Sequence record: DRR723986_4746
DNA: 51,876 nt
Strand: one strand, 5' to 3'
The translations under genes were made by a program, and so were the position numbers. This document shows positions 20,433-27,582 of the stretch, piece by piece. Each line of letters begins with the position of its first letter. The first letter of the stretch is position 1. Under the pieces are notes generated by a model. That model worked only from the letters and a program-made list of their open reading frames with translations, did no database searches and was not told the origin of the DNA.

Positions 20433-22052
20433 ATGTCGCGTTTTAGCTCGACTGAGCGATTTCTGTCGCTGTTCACCACCTTGCGCCCCGGAGAGGGGAC
20501 AGGCGCGGTGCGGATCTGCGTGCAGTCCTTTGTGATCATGTTTGCCTACTACCTGCTCAAGGTGATTCGGGAACCGCTGATCCTTGCCGATGGATCGGCG
20601 GAACTGAAAGCCTACTCCACCGCATTCCAGGCCCTGCTGCTGATGCTGATCGTGCCCCTGTTCGCCCGCGCCTACCAGCAGGTGAGCAAACTGGAAGAAA
20701 AGCACCACCTGTTTCGCAACACCCTGCTGTTTTTTATTGGCAACCTGGTGATCTTCGGCCTGCTGCACAGCATCGGCGTGTCCATCGCCATCGCGTTCTA
20801 TGTCTGGCTGGGTATTTTTTCGGTGATGGTACTGGCGTTGTTCTGGGCCTTCGCCGCCGATCTGTACAACCTCAAGTCCGGTCAGCGAATTTTTCCGCTG
20901 ATTGCCGCAGCCTCCGCTTTCGGCGCGCTCCTGGGCTCGGGTCTGGCCAGCGATATCGACCTGCGAATCGGTCATGAGGGCGTCATGGGCCTGGCCGCCA
21001 CCCTGCTGTTGATTCCCTGGTGGCTGAGCCGCAAAACCGAGCAGCACATTCCTCTGGGTTCCCGCTCCCATACGCTGGAGCGAGGTGATGACCGCCGCTA
21101 CCCGCTGATGGAGGGCTTCCAGATCATCTGGCGCAGCCGCTACCTGACGCTCATCGCCGGCTTTGTGATCGTGCTCAACCTGATCAACACCAACGGTGAA
21201 TACATCCTGGCGAGCTTCGTCACCGATGAGGCCTACCTGCACAACCAATATACCGGCAGCGTGGACGAGTACATCACCCTGTTCTATTCCCAGTACCTGT
21301 TCCTGACCACCCTGATCAGTTTCCTGATCCAGCTGTTCCTGGTGTCGAGGATCTACGAGCGCATCGGTATTGCCGGCGCGCTCCACCTGCTACCCATCCT
21401 GATGATCGCGAACTACAGCGTGATTGCCGTATTCCCTGTGCTGGCTGTCGTGCGGCTGGCGATGGTAGCGGAGAACAGCCTGAATTACTCGCTGCAGACC
21501 ACCACCCGCCACGCGCTGTTCCTGCCGGTGAGCCGGGAGGAGAAATACGTCGGCAAGCACACCATCGATACCTTCTTCTTCCGGGTAGGCGATGTGCTCT
21601 CGGGCAGTTTCGTCTACCTGGCCAGCGCCGTGATCGGCGTCAGTCTGGTGGGTTTCGTCGCGGTTAACATCGTACTGGCGGGAATACTGCTGCTGCTATC
21701 CCGTGCAATCGGTCGGCGCCACACGAGCAACGCCGCAGAGAAGCTCAACAACATGGCCCCGGTGGTAGGATCCCCGCCGCGGGATGTGTTTGTACCCGCA
21801 GGCCAGCTTACCGAGCTGGCAATCGAGCCGGAAACCTTCATCGATCCGGACGTGGGCGACGCACTGAAGTACCACGCCTTCGCGGCCCATTCCCAGCGCC
21901 TGCCAGGCTGGGTAAAGTTCGACGGGCTCAATCGTCGCTTTGAATTTACCCCGCCCGCCAGCAGTGCCGGCAGCCTGCGGATCCGGATCGTAGCCCGGGA
22001 CTTTGACGGCCTTGAAGCCGACGTGTCCTTTACCGTGAACTACGGCTCCTGA
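20433..22052 (+). CDS. NTT/TLC-family nucleotide carrier homologue with a C-terminal cadherin-like (CADG/He_PIG) Ig domain
   Basis: About 12 hydrophobic segments with YYLLKVIREPL, FWAFAADLY...QRIFPLI and YSLQ...LFLPVSREEKYVGKHTID. The last ~100 aa read NMAPVV...FIDPDVGD.L.Y...LPGWVKFD...IVARDFDG. Confidence 0.8.
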   Translation: MSRFSSTERFLSLFTTLRPGEGTGAVRICVQSFVIMFAYYLLKVIREPLILADGSAELKAYSTAFQALLLMLIVPLFARAYQQVSKLEEKHHLFRNTLLFFIGNLVIFGLLHSIGVSIAIAFYVWLGIFSVMVLALFWAFAADLYNLKSGQRIFPLIAAASAFGALLGSGLASDIDLRIGHEGVMGLAATLLLIPWWLSRKTEQHIPLGSRSHTLERGDDRRYPLMEGFQIIWRSRYLTLIAGFVIVLNLINTNGEYILASFVTDEAYLHNQYTGSVDEYITLFYSQYLFLTTLISFLIQLFLVSRIYERIGIAGALHLLPILMIANYSVIAVFPVLAVVRLAMVAENSLNYSLQTTTRHALFLPVSREEKYVGKHTIDTFFFRVGDVLSGSFVYLASAVIGVSLVGFVAVNIVLAGILLLLSRAIGRRHTSNAAEKLNNMAPVVGSPPRDVFVPAGQLTELAIEPETFIDPDVGDALKYHAFAAHSQRLPGWVKFDGLNRRFEFTPPASSAGSLRIRIVARDFDGLEADVSFTVNYGS

Positions 22053-22055
22053 GCG

Positions 22056-23387
22056 TTAAGCGACCTCAGCCTGCTGCCGGGCCTGCTGCTCCTCATACTC
22101 GGCAAAGCGGCGACCGGCATAGCGCGCCGCGATCACCCAGACCACCAGCAGCACCAGGGTAATGATGCTCAGGTAGCGCAGGCTCTCGAAATCCTTGAAC
22201 AGGAAGGTCAACCCGAGGCTGATCACCACGGCAATCGACTTGGCAAAACGCTGCACAAACATATCGATAAACGCCTTGGCGCGGTATTTCTCGGCGGCGG
22301 AGGTCGGCACATAAAGCGCTTCCTTGGCCGACTGGTTGATGGAATAACTGAAGGCGTTATCCACCGTGTTGAGCAGGCTGCCGGCCCACAGAATCGGGAA
22401 TAGCAGGAATGCGCTGGACCCAAGGGCGATCGCGCAGGGCAGTACCAGCAGTGCAATGCCAATGCCAAACCGGGACATGACGAAGCCGGTCAGGAACAAC
22501 TGGACCAACAGGGACACCCAGTTGGTAATACTGAAAACCAGCGCAAACTGCGCGCCAATCTCGGGGCCACTCAGGTAATGGGCAATGGTGGCTGTGAACT
22601 GGAAATCCAGCATAGTGGATATGACTTCGTAGAGGCCGACGATCGCCACAATCGACAACAGGTAAGGCGAACGAAACACCAGGCGGGCACCCTCGGTGGC
22701 CGCACTGTGTTCCTGCTTCTCCGGCGCTGCCGTCGCGGCCGCTGCCAGCGGCACCTGGACATGACGACCCGCTGACCAGGCTGCCGTAATGATCAGCAGG
22801 GCCAGGCCGACGCAGACCCACAGCCAGTCCTGGTAGGAAAGCGACTCGATATTCACCCGCACCACCGTGGAGCCGAAAACACCGCCGGCGACCCCCCCAA
22901 GCCCCACCAGCCCATACATCCGTCGAGCAGTGTCCGGGCGCACGGCATCGTTGAGGAAAGCGAAAAACGTCGCCACCATCAGGGTCGAGAACAGGTCACC
23001 GAACAGGTAAAAGCTCCAGACGCCGGGACCTTCCGGATTTGCCAGACGTGACGAGAAGACGACGTAGCAGGCAATAAAGAACGCCGAAAAGGCGAAGGTA
23101 AGCTGCTGCCGGCGCAGCCGATGGCTCAACCAGCTGAACACAACAACCGCCACGAAGGCGACCACCATATTCAGCACCTTTGCCAGCAGCTCCGCCTGGG
23201 CGGCAGAGAAACTGACCGAGAGCAGGTCGAACCCATCGGTATCGTAATACTCGATAAACAGGCCCTTCTTCAGCGGCTTGAGAATCCAGAAACTGGTGAT
23301 TACCAGGAAGAAGTAGCAAAACATGGACAGGGCCAGCGGCCACTCGCCCGGACGGATGTCCATGGAAGCCTTGAACGGGTTTTTCAT
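22056..23387 (-). CDS. NTT/TLC-family nucleotide carrier homologue
   Basis: FWILKPLKKGLF, FFAFLNDAV...ARRMYGLVG and YSINQSAKEALYVPTSAAEKYRAKAFID; about 12 TM segments. Confidence 0.85.
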   Translation of the reverse strand: MKNPFKASMDIRPGEWPLALSMFCYFFLVITSFWILKPLKKGLFIEYYDTDGFDLLSVSFSAAQAELLAKVLNMVVAFVAVVVFSWLSHRLRRQQLTFAFSAFFIACYVVFSSRLANPEGPGVWSFYLFGDLFSTLMVATFFAFLNDAVRPDTARRMYGLVGLGGVAGGVFGSTVVRVNIESLSYQDWLWVCVGLALLIITAAWSAGRHVQVPLAAAATAAPEKQEHSAATEGARLVFRSPYLLSIVAIVGLYEVISTMLDFQFTATIAHYLSGPEIGAQFALVFSITNWVSLLVQLFLTGFVMSRFGIGIALLVLPCAIALGSSAFLLFPILWAGSLLNTVDNAFSYSINQSAKEALYVPTSAAEKYRAKAFIDMFVQRFAKSIAVVISLGLTFLFKDFESLRYLSIITLVLLVVWVIAARYAGRRFAEYEEQQARQQAEVA

Positions 23388-23461: not shown

Positions 23462-25363
23462 CTAGCTTTTCCCGGTGCCCTGCGCTTCCTTGAGGATACG
23501 GTCCCGGCGTTCCAGGATCGCCTCGATCTGGCGCGGGTGCAGGTAGTCGGAAAGCTCCGCCGTCAGGCGCGCCTCGTCCAGCGACTCTAGCTTGGAGCGC
23601 AGCAGGTCCGACACCATGAGGGTGACCTTACGATACTGCTTGGGTCGCGAGTCACTGCTGCGGAACGCCAGGCTGTGGTCGATAAAGCGCAGCATGAAGT
23701 CATCTTTCGACCACAGGATATTGGTGAGATTGCGGTCGTCATTGTGGATCAGGATGTCAAAAATAAAACGCAGCCGGTACTGCTCACTCTGCTTGCAGTA
23801 GCCACTGAATGATACTTCCTCCTCCAGTCGATCGCGTTCATTGATAGCATTTTCAATCCAGTCAGACAGGGCACCCTCATCGCCATCGACCGTCGACAAC
23901 ACCGCGGCAGGCACCATCTGCAGATCGATCATGCGATCCAGCTTGTAGGCTGCGACGTCGTAGACATAGCGGTCCGCATCGTCATTGCGACGCGGGATGT
24001 AGCGCTCCTTGCTCTCGATGCCGGGGTGGGTATCCTCATACTTGAATACCGCATCATTGCTGACGCCTTCCCGAGTCTGGCGCACCCGCTTGGGCTTGGT
24101 AATGCCGGTGCCGATATCCTTGACCGAGACGATTTCGGCGGTGCGCATAAACTCTTCCAGTTCGGTATCGGTCATGGCCGATAGCTGTTCAGAAATACTG
24201 CGCTGCTCAGGTACCGGTGACGCACGTTCCCCACTGCCGAGGTAGTGCACGTAATCCTCTCCGTCACCGGAGATCAGTGCCGAGGCGCGGCCCCGGTAGA
24301 CACTTTTCAGCATTCCGGTATCGAGGCGGATCGCCAGCCCTTCCATCCGCTCCAGCACCTCGCCACGGGACGGCGTATGACCCATCACCAGCTGGCTCGC
24401 CCCGACCCGCTTGAGGAAACGCTCGGTGTTATAGGACTCCGCATACGGGTGACAGAGCGCGGTACCGCGGTACCAGTTGGGGCTGTCATCACTGAATACA
24501 AAGGCCTGCTGGGCTTCGAATACCTCGGTGAGCGGCTCAAACCATGCGGCCCTGGCCTTGGGGTTCTGCACTGCATAGCTCTCGGCCGCCGCATTCAGGA
24601 ACCCAAGTCGATCGTGGTAGCCCACGTGCCAGGGCATGACACCGGCGGCCCGCAGCTCATCCATATTGGCGAGGAAATTGCGCAGTTCACCCTGCATCTT
24701 GTTGTTGATCGCCTCAATACTGTCCTCGCTCACAGCACTGGCAATACCACCGTGCATATAGACCTTGTCGTTGACCTTGATGACAAAGGGTTGCTGCACC
24801 AGCCAGCTGCCCAGCGCTCCCTTGCTCGAGTACGCCTTGCGCAGGGCAAAGAATCCGGGCGGATAGCTACTGTCGAAACTGGCGCGCACCTCGGCATCCT
24901 CACCGCCCGTGTTGAAGCGCCGATAGTCGGCGAAGCCCGCATCGCGATCGGCCTGTGTTTCATCCCCGGCGAAGGCGGCGAACTCAGCCGCTGAGACGTA
25001 GCGCAAGTCACCGGTCATGACCATGACTTCGTGATTACCCAGCACCATATGCACTGCCCCACCGGCCGCATCCGCCTGGCGATCGAGCTTCATCAATAAT
25101 TCCACCACCTTGCGCGAGCCGGGCCCTCGGTCGATCAGGTCACCCAGGGACACCAGGGTGGTATTACCTCCGGCCCAGTCCAGTCCGGCGTTAACCACCC
25201 CCACTTCCTGTAGCAGCGCGACCCAGTCGTCGTAGGCGCCGTGGACATCGGCAAAGGCGACAACGCGACCCGGCGCCTTGAAGTCATAGGGATCAGCTGC
25301 CTGCGCCGTGGCGATCAGGCCAGTGGCAAGCATGGCGATAAGGAACGAGATGGTGAGGCGCAT
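23462..25363 (-). CDS. Exported fusion protein: Shewanella-like (Shelph) metallophosphoesterase plus C-terminal atypical kinase-like domain (FAM20/PI4K-like)
   Basis: Signal peptide MRLTISFLIAMLATGLIATAQA. Phosphoesterase motifs ADVHG, GDLIDRG, GNHE, HGG, WYRG, GHT, LDTG. Kinase-like motifs IGTGITKP, AVFK, DVAAYKLDR, FDILIHNDDRNLTN, IDHSLAF. Start set at the ATG at 25363 after AGGGAAGG. Confidence 0.8.
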   Translation of the reverse strand: MRLTISFLIAMLATGLIATAQAADPYDFKAPGRVVAFADVHGAYDDWVALLQEVGVVNAGLDWAGGNTTLVSLGDLIDRGPGSRKVVELLMKLDRQADAAGGAVHMVLGNHEVMVMTGDLRYVSAAEFAAFAGDETQADRDAGFADYRRFNTGGEDAEVRASFDSSYPPGFFALRKAYSSKGALGSWLVQQPFVIKVNDKVYMHGGIASAVSEDSIEAINNKMQGELRNFLANMDELRAAGVMPWHVGYHDRLGFLNAAAESYAVQNPKARAAWFEPLTEVFEAQQAFVFSDDSPNWYRGTALCHPYAESYNTERFLKRVGASQLVMGHTPSRGEVLERMEGLAIRLDTGMLKSVYRGRASALISGDGEDYVHYLGSGERASPVPEQRSISEQLSAMTDTELEEFMRTAEIVSVKDIGTGITKPKRVRQTREGVSNDAVFKYEDTHPGIESKERYIPRRNDDADRYVYDVAAYKLDRMIDLQMVPAAVLSTVDGDEGALSDWIENAINERDRLEEEVSFSGYCKQSEQYRLRFIFDILIHNDDRNLTNILWSKDDFMLRFIDHSLAFRSSDSRPKQYRKVTLMVSDLLRSKLESLDEARLTAELSDYLHPRQIEAILERRDRILKEAQGTGKS

Positions 25364-25437
25364 GATTTTCCTTCCCTGTGGCTCGAGTCTCTGGCTGTTG
25401 ATTCTAGCGGCTTGACCGGGGAATGCCACGTCCGCGA

Positions 25438-27582
25438 CTAATCCACCCAGCCGAGCACATCACGCACGACCGACCAGCGCGGCTTACGATCGCGGGATGC
25501 CCCACCCAGCATCCAGTAGCGGTGCAGCCGATCAACAGTCCCGTCCTTGCGTTTCAGGTCCACCCAGTTGCTGACAAAGGCCTGCATTTCCGTGTCGCCC
25601 TTGGGCACGGCGTAGGCTGCGGGGTAGCGTATTCCGCCGCTGCGTGACCTTGCCACCGAATAGCGCGGATAGCGGTAGGCGTAGGCAGCGCCCTCTTCCG
25701 CGGACAACAGGAGAGCATCGGCTTCCACTCCATTGCCATTAAAGAAATCCTCCGCCGCCTCGAGCATTACAATCCGGGCGTTGGGCAGCATGCGGCGCAG
25801 CTTGGGTTCAAAGTAGTGGGAACTGACCAGCGCGATGGTCAGGTCGTCCATGGCGCGCAGTGCCGCCGGATCGCTAAAGAGTTCTCGCTCGTGGTCGGGC
25901 ACGACGAAAGCCAGGTTGAGGTCCAGGTAGGGCTGGGAGAAGGAGGCACGGGCAAAGCGGTCCGGCAAGGCCGCGATACAGGACATGGCCATGTCGATCT
26001 GACCGGATCCCAGCATGCGGCTCAGCGCATCAAATTCGAACGGCACAAACTCCAGATCAACGCCGATATCCTCTGCAAGGATATGGGCCATTTCGACGTC
26101 GAAGCCTACCAGTGAACCATCTGGCGTCAGGAAGCTGCAGGGCAGGTTGCTGGGCCGGTAGCCCACCTGCAGGACACCGGTGCGCAGGATATGGTCCAGC
26201 CGGGTACCGGCAAGCTGGGTGACACTGGCCTCGGGGACATCTTCCGAGACCCGGGCGCTGACCCGCTCTTCCATCAGGTGCAGTTGCGCCAGAACCGACT
26301 CACGAGCGGGCGGCTCCGGCACGAAGGCGGTGAAATAGGTGCGCAAGCCGACCACCATGATCGCCAGGCTGGCGCCGGTGATGAGCAGGTAGCGCGTCAG
26401 CTGCGGCCACTTCACCTTGACCAGGCCACCCAGCGCCAGCGTGCCAAGCACGCTGACCACAATGATATGCAGGGCCGCGAGCATCGCCCCGAAGCGCCCC
26501 ACCACCACGCCGGTTACCAGGAACAGCTGAAACATGTCTGCCGGCACCCGCAGGCTGTCCAGCATATAGGGCACCGCAACATTCAGGCTGCCGAAGAGGC
26601 TGAGCAGGCCATTGAACGCCAGCGCCAGGCTGGCGGAAAAACTTACCTGCGTATCGGTAAACCAGGCGGCAAACAGGACATACAGGATCACCAGCAGCTT
26701 GCCGAGCGAGGGGAAATTGAATGAGACAGGAACGATGATATCGATGGCGGAATCGGCGTCGCCACGCTCGACGCCGTGTTTATGCAACAGTGCTTTGCAG
26801 TTCTCGGCGATCTGCGGCAGCACGACAAACTGGTTGCCGGTAGCAAATGCCGTCACCAGCGGATCGCGAAATGTGGCCAGAACCTCACGGAATGGAATGC
26901 CACTGACCGCTGCTACAAGGCCCGGAAATATCCAGAACGTTACCAGGGCCGCCAGGCAGACATAGGTGATCAGGTAAACCTGCACCCGACCCAGTTCTTC
27001 CACTGTCATGGTACCGGCCGCCGCCGCTGCTATGGCGAAAATGCCAAAGGGTGTTAGCTGGATTACGGCGTTATTGATCCTGCTGAGTGCGTCCGCCATG
27101 CCATCGAATATCGGCAGGATAGCGCCCTTCTGCTCTACCGAGATGAATGCGACGCCCATCAGGATACTGAAGAACACCACCGCAGGAACCAGGTTGTGGG
27201 AAAGGGAGTAAAACACGTTGGACGGGAGGTAAAGCTCGAACAGGTTGACCTGCTCTACCGCATCGGCCTGCATGCTGCTGAAGAAGGCAGCAGTTTCCAA
27301 TTCAGGGAACGACAGGGCAGCGGCGAAGATCATCGCCAGGGCCAGGCCCCAGATGGCCAGGAGCACAACGGCGCCTCGTACCGCCAGCCGCTTGGCCTGG
27401 GCCATTTGCATGCGGCCGAATCCGGCGATCAGCGACACGACAATATAGGGCAGCACGGTAATCTGCAGCAGCCGGACGAATACATCGCCGACAACCTTCA
27501 GCTCGGCGACCAATTCGCCAAAAAACAGGCCGGTGGCGATACCCGCCGCCAGCCCGACCATGATTCTGCCCGAAAGGCTCAT
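25438..27582 (-). CDS. Dicarboxylate/amino acid:cation symporter (DAACS) fused to a C-terminal family-3 solute-binding domain
   Basis: N-terminal GDVFVRLLQITVLPY, VVFFSILMG, LTPFGIFA. C-terminal GVLQVGY...GSLVGFDVEMA...FSQPY. Confidence 0.85.
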   Translation of the reverse strand: MSLSGRIMVGLAAGIATGLFFGELVAELKVVGDVFVRLLQITVLPYIVVSLIAGFGRMQMAQAKRLAVRGAVVLLAIWGLALAMIFAAALSFPELETAAFFSSMQADAVEQVNLFELYLPSNVFYSLSHNLVPAVVFFSILMGVAFISVEQKGAILPIFDGMADALSRINNAVIQLTPFGIFAIAAAAAGTMTVEELGRVQVYLITYVCLAALVTFWIFPGLVAAVSGIPFREVLATFRDPLVTAFATGNQFVVLPQIAENCKALLHKHGVERGDADSAIDIIVPVSFNFPSLGKLLVILYVLFAAWFTDTQVSFSASLALAFNGLLSLFGSLNVAVPYMLDSLRVPADMFQLFLVTGVVVGRFGAMLAALHIIVVSVLGTLALGGLVKVKWPQLTRYLLITGASLAIMVVGLRTYFTAFVPEPPARESVLAQLHLMEERVSARVSEDVPEASVTQLAGTRLDHILRTGVLQVGYRPSNLPCSFLTPDGSLVGFDVEMAHILAEDIGVDLEFVPFEFDALSRMLGSGQIDMAMSCIAALPDRFARASFSQPYLDLNLAFVVPDHERELFSDPAALRAMDDLTIALVSSHYFEPKLRRMLPNARIVMLEAAEDFFNGNGVEADALLLSAEEGAAYAYRYPRYSVARSRSGGIRYPAAYAVPKGDTEMQAFVSNWVDLKRKDGTVDRLHRYWMLGGASRDRKPRWSVVRDVLGWVD

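Follow-up and report, generated by a model that had tools for sequence, protein, structure and literature searches.

How could a bacterium run a kinase and a phosphatase on the outer side of its inner membrane, and where would the phosphate come from? This question is raised by one gene in the 51,876-nt stretch of DNA analysed here (sequence record DRR723986_4746; hereafter the window), a minus-strand gene (23462..25363) for a predicted exported fusion of a Shelph phosphatase with a FAM20-like kinase domain. Extracytoplasmic kinases are well known in animals, where FAM20C makes most of the secreted phosphoproteome; in the bacterial periplasm, to our knowledge, ATP-driven phosphorylation is generally thought impossible for lack of ATP. 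We consider it rather probable, judging from sequence, that the fusion protein is a periplasmic kinase/phosphatase supplied with nucleotide by the TLC-family transporter encoded next to it.

The list of open reading frames (ORFs) gives an ORF of 23462..25429 on the minus strand, and translation from the ATG at 25363 yields 633 amino acids (aa) and a stop codon. We favour this ATG, as did the sequence-only reading that preceded our analysis, over the GTG at 25429 because an AAGGA Shine-Dalgarno sequence lies 6 nt 5' of it and because close homologues of the protein are 628–635 aa long. The nearest homologues (70–81% identity) come from Halioglobus and other Halieaceae, which argues for a diderm gammaproteobacterial host, and export by Sec in a diderm would take the protein as far as the periplasm or beyond; the G+C content of the window is ~62% throughout. 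All motifs quoted in the sequence-only reading were found in the translation where it had placed them. We regard the two domain identities, Shelph phosphatase and FAM20/PI4K-II-like kinase (PI4K-II, type II phosphatidylinositol 4-kinase), as practically certain. The fusion architecture itself, PF00149+PF20613 "HipA_2", is already recorded in Pfam. An earlier expectation that annotation would say only "metallophosphoesterase" was therefore partly wrong, as PF00149 and PF20613 are found together on nearly all listed homologues, some of which are named "HipA family kinase" or "Calcineurin-like phosphoesterase/HipA-like kinase" in databases.

The C-terminal domain (residues about 392–628; 23480..24190, minus strand; Pfam HipA_2) is, as judged from profile comparison and modelling, a minimal, stripped-down representative of the FAM20/PI4K-type-II branch of the protein-kinase-like superfamily. 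Searched as a single sequence against the PDB sequences, this domain had no meaningful match (best E 0.43), and FAM20 was reached there only through a profile of the kinase family, which matched FAM20A (E 7e-11), FAM20C (2.3e-9), zebrafish Fam20C (5.7e-9), Hydra Fam20 (7.1e-9) and C. elegans Fam20 (2.3e-6), as well as PI4K-II beta and alpha (1.6e-4 to 3.9e-3); among the same PDB sequences the profile found no HipA, HipT or CtkA chain at E≤10. In the profile alignment, AxFK of the family falls on AMFK of FAM20A, ..AAYrLDR..VP.tV on AEIAAFHLDR..VPPTV, FDxLIxNxDR on FDFLIGNMDRH, and IDhsRaF on LDNARGF. An AlphaFold2 (AF2) model of the domain (50 sequences) reached pLDDT 95.4 and pTM 0.92, and Foldseek run on that model agreed with the FAM20/PI4K-II placement. 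This comparison of the last ~240 aa, which the sequence-only reading had suggested as a check, thus returned a kinase fold nearest to FAM20 and PI4K-II, and the earlier call of a FAM20/Four-jointed/PI4K-like kinase is borne out by family profile, fold match and conserved residues alike.

The residues in question lie in or near the motifs IGTGITKP (417–424), AVFK (438–441), DVAAYKLDR (469–477), FDILIHNDDRNLTN (535–548) and IDHSLAF (561–567). We compared two alignments, one of 45 fused proteins (the window protein and 44 relatives, down to 23% identity) and one of 50 mostly stand-alone kinase domains. G420, K441, D543 and D562 are at least 90% conserved in both; N541 is invariant in both, and N548 never varies in the fused set and reaches at least 90% in the mostly stand-alone one, so that the catalytic residues are retained down to 23% identity. 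The alphaC column is always acidic (Glu 25 and Asp 20 in the fused set, Glu 34 and Asp 16 in the other); the earlier remark that the usual Glu is Asp in this protein is correct but unremarkable, given that either residue occurs throughout both sets. A regular-expression survey of 150 representatives found the catalytic loop in 136 and a DFG-like motif in 139. By these alignments the domain keeps the ATP-binding Lys, the acidic alphaC residue, the catalytic Asp/Asn loop and the metal-binding Asp.

The family is poorly served by its database label. HipA_2 (PF20613) scores 27.6 bits on the whole protein and 29.6 on the domain alone against a cut-off of 27, and this match is partial, covering profile positions 108–160 of 240 (53 positions). 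PI3_PI4_kinase (PF00454) stays below threshold at 15.6 bits (cut-off 27.1), as does the match of the kinase domain to the NCBIfam SCO1664 family, and the Pfam Fam20C model (PF06702) gave no match at E≤10 with either the whole protein or the domain alone. Since the Fam20C model is not reached, we treat the domain as belonging to a homologous sister family of FAM20 and not to FAM20 itself. An exhaustive search of 1.84 billion representatives returned 1709 relatives at E≤1e-3, of which 955 reach E≤1e-10, either stand-alone proteins of ~250–340 aa or proteins of ~600–650 aa with the domain at the C-terminus. The Pfam/NCBI label "HipA-like" therefore misdescribes a family of about 1700 representative clusters that by fold and profile lies closer to FAM20 and PI4K-II.

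Comparison with the known relatives sharpens the picture. Homology and a shared fold are detectable with the FAM20 kinases (the Golgi casein kinase Fam20C, the xylosylkinase Fam20B and the pseudokinase Fam20A; PDB 5yh0, 5yh3, 5xom, 4kqa, 5wrr), but Fam20 chains run to ~350–400 aa with extra segments that the 240-aa bacterial domain does without, and the window domain, unlike FAM20, is bacterial and joined to a phosphatase. Type II PI4-kinases (PI4K-II alpha and beta; 4pla, 4hnd, 4wtv), relatives by family profile, work on the cytosolic face, whereas the window protein is predicted to be exported. HipA toxin kinases and H. pylori CtkA are farther than FAM20 and PI4K-II by both fold and profile, and the window protein differs from HipA in having a signal peptide, no antitoxin partner and a context that is not that of a toxin-antitoxin module. 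In the ESM Atlas the nearest clusters consist of bacterial proteins, mostly from Acidobacteriota, and bear the automatic name "PI3K/PI4K catalytic domain-containing protein". In one Myxococcota-rich ESM Atlas cluster (score 0.93), 22% of the members carry Pfam Fam20C (PF06702), a lead that some bacterial relatives might reach the Fam20C model directly.

The N-terminal half (residues about 28–375; 24239..25282, minus strand) is a Shelph-type metallophosphatase domain of the PPP family, identified by PF00149, by PDB and Foldseek matches and by conservation. Known PPP enzymes carry the motifs GDxHG, GDxxDRG, GNHE, HGG and GH, and Shelph enzymes are marked by an additional (I/L/V)D(S/T)G. All of the former are present in the window protein, as ADVHG, GDLIDRG, GNHE, MHGG and GHTP (DVHG at 39–42, GDLIDRG at 74–80, GNHE at 109–112, HGG at 204–206, GHTP at 328–331), and LDTG follows at 347–350. 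Pfam Metallophos (PF00149) scores 48.2 bits against a cut-off of 21.5. The PDB entries 2z72, 1v73 and 2zbm match this half at E 3e-29 to 1e-28, with the next family, ApaH, at E 1.8e-5. The same three entries come first when Foldseek is run on the full-length model (E 4.6e-20 to 9.5e-20), ahead of RDGC, PP5, ApaH and calcineurin (E 2.5e-9 and weaker). Across the 45 fused proteins D39 is invariant, and H41, D75, D78, R79, N110, H111, H204, H329, D348, T349 and G350 are each at least 90% conserved; judged by these residues, the domain looks catalytically competent. The Shelph assignment with its LDTG, made earlier from motifs, holds, with the Shewanella cold-active phosphatase as top match in both sequence and fold.

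That enzyme, a protein-tyrosine phosphatase (1v73, 2z72, 2zbm), is the closest characterised likeness of the phosphatase half (best sequence E 3e-29, best fold E 5e-20). Compared with 2z72 the window protein has two helical insertions (query 124–175 against chain 163–178, and 210–288 against 213–247), and compared with the Shewanella phosphatase and the eukaryotic Shelph/SLP phosphatases it adds the C-terminal kinase domain. A weak match to NCBIfam TIGR04075 (Pnkp; residues 37–115, 26.7 bits against a cut-off of 750) points to another comparison, the bacterial polynucleotide kinase-phosphatase Pnkp, which likewise holds a calcineurin-type metallophosphoesterase and a kinase in one chain. The Pnkp kinase is a P-loop kinase and not of the protein-kinase-like fold, and Pnkp is cytoplasmic whereas the window fusion carries a predicted signal peptide. 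At the same time, the activities of Pnkp act on different ends of one substrate and are not opposed, which makes it a model for non-opposing cooperation between a kinase and a phosphatase.

The predicted Sec signal peptide covers residues 1–22 (25298..25363, minus strand), with an n-region MR, a hydrophobic core and an AQA|AD cleavage motif. In the full-length AF2 model (pLDDT 94.0, pTM 0.91), residues 1–20 form a lone helix (2–15) at pLDDT ~60 and the remainder is not low; with that pTM and low confidence confined to the first 20 residues, the two domains are probably held in a fixed arrangement. Family-wide counts of signal peptides were made with a crude hydrophobic-segment heuristic, which flagged Sec-like N-termini for 114 of 120 close homologues, 51 of the 53 fused representatives that are complete and 33 of 47 stand-alone ones, some of the last being fragments. 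Export of the fusion protein, as proposed earlier, is thus supported by prediction for the protein itself and for its close and fused homologues, and the kinase family is, by this heuristic, systematically signal-peptide-bearing, which is new here.

Each domain of the mature chain contributes a single cysteine, C304 to the phosphatase and C523 to the kinase domain, and there are no others. Of the 45 fused proteins, 31 have the two together, 14 have neither and none has just one, a pattern that may reflect an inter-domain disulfide in most family members; such a disulfide, if present, would argue for an oxidising compartment. The 14 proteins that lack the pair form one clade in a quick IQ-TREE tree (SH-aLRT 100), and the absence is therefore read as a single joint loss and not as repeated co-variation. 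Neither cysteine has a counterpart in a split-gene version of the system (locus L127, see below). Half of that clade (7 of 14: P0191, P0196, P0203, P0204, P0211, P0262 and P0266) has a different pair of cysteines, with a spacing of 38 residues and close to the N-terminal end of the phosphatase domain, which may form an alternative disulfide.

The phosphate donor brings us to the neighbouring gene. The 443-aa TLC/NTT-family transporter (22056..23387, minus strand; PF03219 at 77.1 bits against a cut-off of 21, plus MFS_1) is encoded 74 bp downstream of the fusion gene on the same strand and is probably its operon partner. Its protein matches the structure of the plastid ATP/ADP carrier NTT1 (9j3j) at E 4.6e-18. 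A promoter and terminator scan found no terminator-like site in the 74-bp gap; overall it gave one promoter-like site (mean of shuffles 1.2) and five terminator-like sites (mean 2.7), which is not above chance, and we therefore use it only to say that there is no obvious terminator in the gap. A second TLC/NTT-family gene (20433..22052, plus strand) is convergent with the first and encodes 539 aa with a C-terminal He_PIG Ig-like domain (PF03219 52.9 bits, PF05345 38.8 bits), so that both proteins exceed the Pfam cut-off for PF03219. Because both are divergent members of the superfamily, adenine-nucleotide transport by them is an inference. Plastid NTT1 and the NTT-HEAT and NTT-HEAT-cNBD fusions of free-living bacteria share the Pfam TLC family with these neighbours.

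The association recurs well beyond the window. A scan of one genome per species turned up 378 loci with a relative, of which we kept the best 80; in 79 of these the kinase domain has the phosphatase fused upstream of it, with partial phosphatase matches in L021, L047 and L078 and with L044 cut by a contig end. A TLC gene lies within the 8-kb flanks in 49 of the 80 loci, 38 of them having it directly downstream, no more than 400 bp away and on the same strand, and 11 elsewhere in the flanks (a TLC match had to span at least 150 aligned residues to be counted, and a fragment in L041 is thereby left out), and the convergent pair recurs in 18. The TLC-linked loci come from Halieaceae, Desulfatiglandales, Paraglaciecola, Lysobacterales and Acidobacteriota, and when neighbours were clustered for the 36 most distant loci, TLC was the sole family common to different clades. 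Moreover, in five whole genomes seven of the eight TLC ORFs sit inside the fusion locus, and of five genomes without a TLC gene adjoining the fusion gene four have one elsewhere.

One locus presents the same parts unfused. In L127 (G422:C1:1295000-1307000) a signal-peptide phosphatase (399 aa; 33% identical to window residues 30–375, E 1e-61) and a kinase (298 aa; 33% identical to window residues 392–628, BLASTP E 1e-33, family profile E 2.9e-63) are encoded by adjacent genes, next to a divergently transcribed gene for a 1076-aa TLC-HEAT-cNMP protein; at E≤1e-3 this copy of the kinase goes undetected by Pfam. A 13-kb cluster elsewhere (L123; G429:C207:1-15000) has three kinase-domain genes and two TLC-HEAT genes (958 and 959 aa), together with a 137-aa cyclic-nucleotide-binding protein.

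Co-occurrence was then counted in whole genomes, using three samples from different phyla, each assembled around a centre genome picked for having both genes. In the class sample around G001 (300 genomes) the kinase domain was found in 4 genomes, TLC in 45 and both in 3, that is, TLC in 3 of 4 kinase-positive and 42 of 296 kinase-negative genomes, where the four kinase matches include a fragment at a contig edge and a weak match of 31 bits. The phylum of G005 (record titled Acidobacteriota; 301 genomes) has the kinase domain in 75 genomes, TLC in 114 and both in 75, so that all 75 kinase-positive genomes carry TLC against 39 of 226 kinase-negative ones (Fisher p 3.9e-42, uncorrected for relatedness). 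For the phylum of G003 (201 genomes) the figures are 4, 20 and 3 (3 of 4 against 17 of 197). Pooled, TLC is present in 81 of 83 kinase-positive and 98 of 719 kinase-negative genomes, or in 78 of 80 kinase-positive genomes once the three centre genomes are left out. The TLC tallies include three genomes flagged as unpublished (G044 and G301 among the 45, G359 among the 114), which matter only to the background rates because all are kinase-negative. In the phylum of G005, at least 19 of 150 listed kinase genes have a listed TLC match within 10 kb, and the TLC proteins are of the NTT-HEAT and NTT-HEAT-cNMP forms, described in PMC5381601. The genomic tie between the kinase family and TLC/NTT-like genes is strong and previously unreported.

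In that phylum the stand-alone kinase domain, with a signal-peptide-like N-terminus, is expanded, the top genome having at least eight copies, and copies in tandem are also found (for example G598:C16, G434:C63 and G408:C143); this expansion suggests diversified substrates.

TLC genes without a kinase gene nearby offer a second view of the transporter. We hand-picked 12 such loci with long contigs and good scores (L081–L092, from G023, G093, G225, G274, G007, G160, G064, G170, G256, G258, G276 and G134); eleven come from kinase-negative genomes of the class sample, and L092 from G134, which has a weak kinase match ~120 kb off. In 9 of the 12, TLC lies beside a signal-peptide protein of ~970–1030 aa with PPDK_N ATP-binding and PEP-utilizers domains, plus two signal-peptide proteins of the beta-lactamase fold (about 430 and 300 aa); these assignments come from Pfam for L081 and L088 and from phmmer for the other loci. 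This module was found in none of the 80 fusion loci, and we did not find PPDK_N with TLC described. By its domains it would be a second, unrelated module of an exported ATP-binding enzyme with TLC. Mainly because two unrelated kinds of predicted exported ATP-binding enzyme accompany TLC-like transporters, we prefer periplasmic nucleotide supply over coincidence or plain nutrient uptake.

Taken together, the proposal is as follows. The fusion protein would be exported by Sec into the periplasm of a Halieaceae-like gammaproteobacterium, where one chain would both add and remove phosphate on an envelope or periplasmic substrate, be it a protein, glycan, lipid or small molecule. Fold relatives of the kinase phosphorylate proteins, proteoglycan xylose or a lipid head group, and the fold therefore does not decide the substrate. 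Kinase and phosphatase may act on one substrate in opposition or at different positions, as in Pnkp-type enzymes; "opposing activities", the wording of the sequence-only reading, is thus one option, and the two domains could also act on different positions. The kinase domain would use ATP in the periplasm and would depend on the adjacent TLC/NTT-type exchanger or exchangers, which would most likely pass ATP out and ADP back across the inner membrane. ATP4-/ADP3- exchange can be driven outward by an inside-negative membrane potential, as is established for the mitochondrial carrier and not for NTTs. Characterised NTTs import nucleotides into parasites and plastids, whereas the window transporter may work in the reverse net direction, and we put forward the specific step of ATP export by TLC as a tentative idea, somewhat short of an even case. 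The generalisation that many diderms phosphorylate in the periplasm with exported FAM20-like kinases, either by themselves or with a fused or separate Shelph phosphatase as partner, energised by NTT/TLC export of ATP and uptake of ADP, and that an unrelated class of exported PPDK_N-type enzymes is powered likewise, is more speculative still.

A number of observations weigh against periplasmic phosphorylation supplied through TLC. Neither window transporter reaches the NCBIfam model for NTP/NDP exchange transporters, TIGR00769 (86.6 and 45.3 bits against a cut-off of 387.2). No TLC gene is found within the 8-kb flanks of 31 of the 80 loci, and G308, a complete 4.5-Mb chromosome with a fusion gene, has no TLC match at all. 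Two genomes, G067 and G646, have kinase matches without TLC, both of them partial, and conversely most TLC-like genes occur without the kinase, in 42 of 45, 39 of 114 and 17 of 20 TLC-positive genomes of the three samples. The co-occurrence counts are uncorrected for shared ancestry and the centre genomes were chosen for having both genes, while the co-variation of C304 and C523 needs just one evolutionary change on the tree. Finally, since porins bound the periplasm, ATP released there could be lost to the outside.

The reading that survives best beside ours, although unlikely, is that the exported enzyme scavenges, processing external nucleotides, dinucleoside polyphosphates or phosphate esters, with TLC importing the products or nucleotides and no export of ATP. 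Dissolved nucleotides are a plausible resource for free-living hosts, and the hosts here are, by their organism names, free-living marine and soil bacteria. After Shelph, the next-best matches of the phosphatase domain are ApaH-type Ap4A hydrolases, and all characterised NTT/TLC proteins import nucleotides, according to PMC5381601. Scavenging would, however, provide no explanation of a phosphate donor, which a kinase needs in its own compartment, and conservation of the kinase catalytic residues at 90% or more goes beyond the demands of a pure binding role. Nor does it account for stand-alone kinase genes, which have no phosphatase and still co-occur with TLC (75 of 75 genomes), or for a second TLC-linked module that is again a predicted exported ATP-binding enzyme.

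The kinase fold might instead perform no ATP-dependent phosphotransfer, serving the phosphatase as a pseudokinase-like regulatory or targeting module that binds a ligand or nucleotide, or using a donor other than ATP. We find this quite improbable. It would fit a periplasm generally held to lack ATP (PMC7432876), the fact that the best profile match, FAM20A, is named a pseudokinase in its PDB record, and the one genome that has a fusion gene and no TLC. Yet conservation reaches at least 90% for the catalytic and metal-binding Asp and is complete among fused proteins for the catalytic-loop Asn, the loop and the DFG-like motif are kept by most of the surveyed representatives (136 and 139 of 150), and the stand-alone, predicted exported copies, at least eight in the top genome, have no phosphatase to regulate.

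We think it very unlikely that the protein is an effector that leaves the cell by type II secretion or in vesicles and acts on or in other organisms, or in lysed cells with ATP, with TLC playing no part in powering it: free-living lineages of sea, sediment and soil widely carry the family, its sole cross-clade neighbour is an inner-membrane transporter, and no secretion-system genes were seen among the conserved neighbours of the 36 distant loci. A cytoplasmic HipA-type toxin kinase of a toxin-antitoxin module, for which the HipA_2 score just above its cut-off (27.6–29.6 against 27 bits) and the NCBI name "HipA family kinase" of some homologues would speak, was rejected as scarcely credible, given the signal peptide, the transporter neighbours, the lack of a small conserved partner gene across the 36 distant loci and the lack of a sequence match to HipA proper.

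Returning to the neighbours in the window, Kyte-Doolittle counting of transmembrane segments in the two TLC proteins gave overlapping, unreliable segments, and no topology was drawn. He_PIG-type domains are usually extracytoplasmic and the C-terminus of a 12-helix protein of the major facilitator superfamily is expected to be cytoplasmic; the He_PIG domain at the C-terminus of the 539-aa TLC protein is at odds with this expectation. Directly upstream of the fusion gene, at 25438-27582 on the minus strand, a gene encodes a 714-aa protein in which a sodium:dicarboxylate symporter (SDF) is joined to a family-3 solute-binding domain. It is found upstream of the fusion gene in many Halieaceae loci and not in other clades, and being confined to Halieaceae it probably reflects synteny only.

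Literature searches brought up no description of a Shelph-kinase fusion, of exported FAM20-like kinases from this bacterial family or of a link between the kinase and NTT, though supplements may list such families. A 2026 preprint has PF20613 solely as a cross-reference, where a kinase database merges it with HipA_C, and a 2022 survey of the Legionella kinome calls the FAM20 cluster eukaryote- or metazoa-specific (PMC9758233). A 2020 review describes the route of ATP into the periplasm as unknown and states that Gram-negatives are not known to encode a homologue of the ATP-ADP translocase (PMC7432876). Major et al. 2017 report NTT, NTT-HEAT and NTT-HEAT-cNBD genes in free-living bacteria, with the functions of the fusion genes unknown and every functionally characterised NTT coming from a parasite or organelle; kinases, periplasm and export are not mentioned in the available part (PMC5381601).

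The locus thus offers a concrete, testable system, in which a kinase that is predicted to be exported and retains its catalytic residues stands together with a phosphatase in the same chain and with a nucleotide-exchanger-like transporter found alongside the kinase family in three phyla, and experiments on the fusion gene are feasible because cultivated carriers exist (Parahalioglobus, Seongchinamella, Parahaliea and Pseudohalioglobus). It bears on two published questions, the entry of ATP into the periplasm (PMC7432876) and the role of NTTs in free-living bacteria (PMC5381601). What the sequences point to is a bacterial, predicted exported and phosphatase-fused branch of the FAM20/PI4K-II kinases, whose tie to NTT makes the hypothesis of periplasmic ATP directly testable. 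If it is true, the long-unexplained NTT genes of free-living bacteria would gain a function, there would be an answer to how ATP reaches the periplasm, and the FAM20 kinases of the animal secretory pathway would have their roots in a bacterial family of exported kinases.

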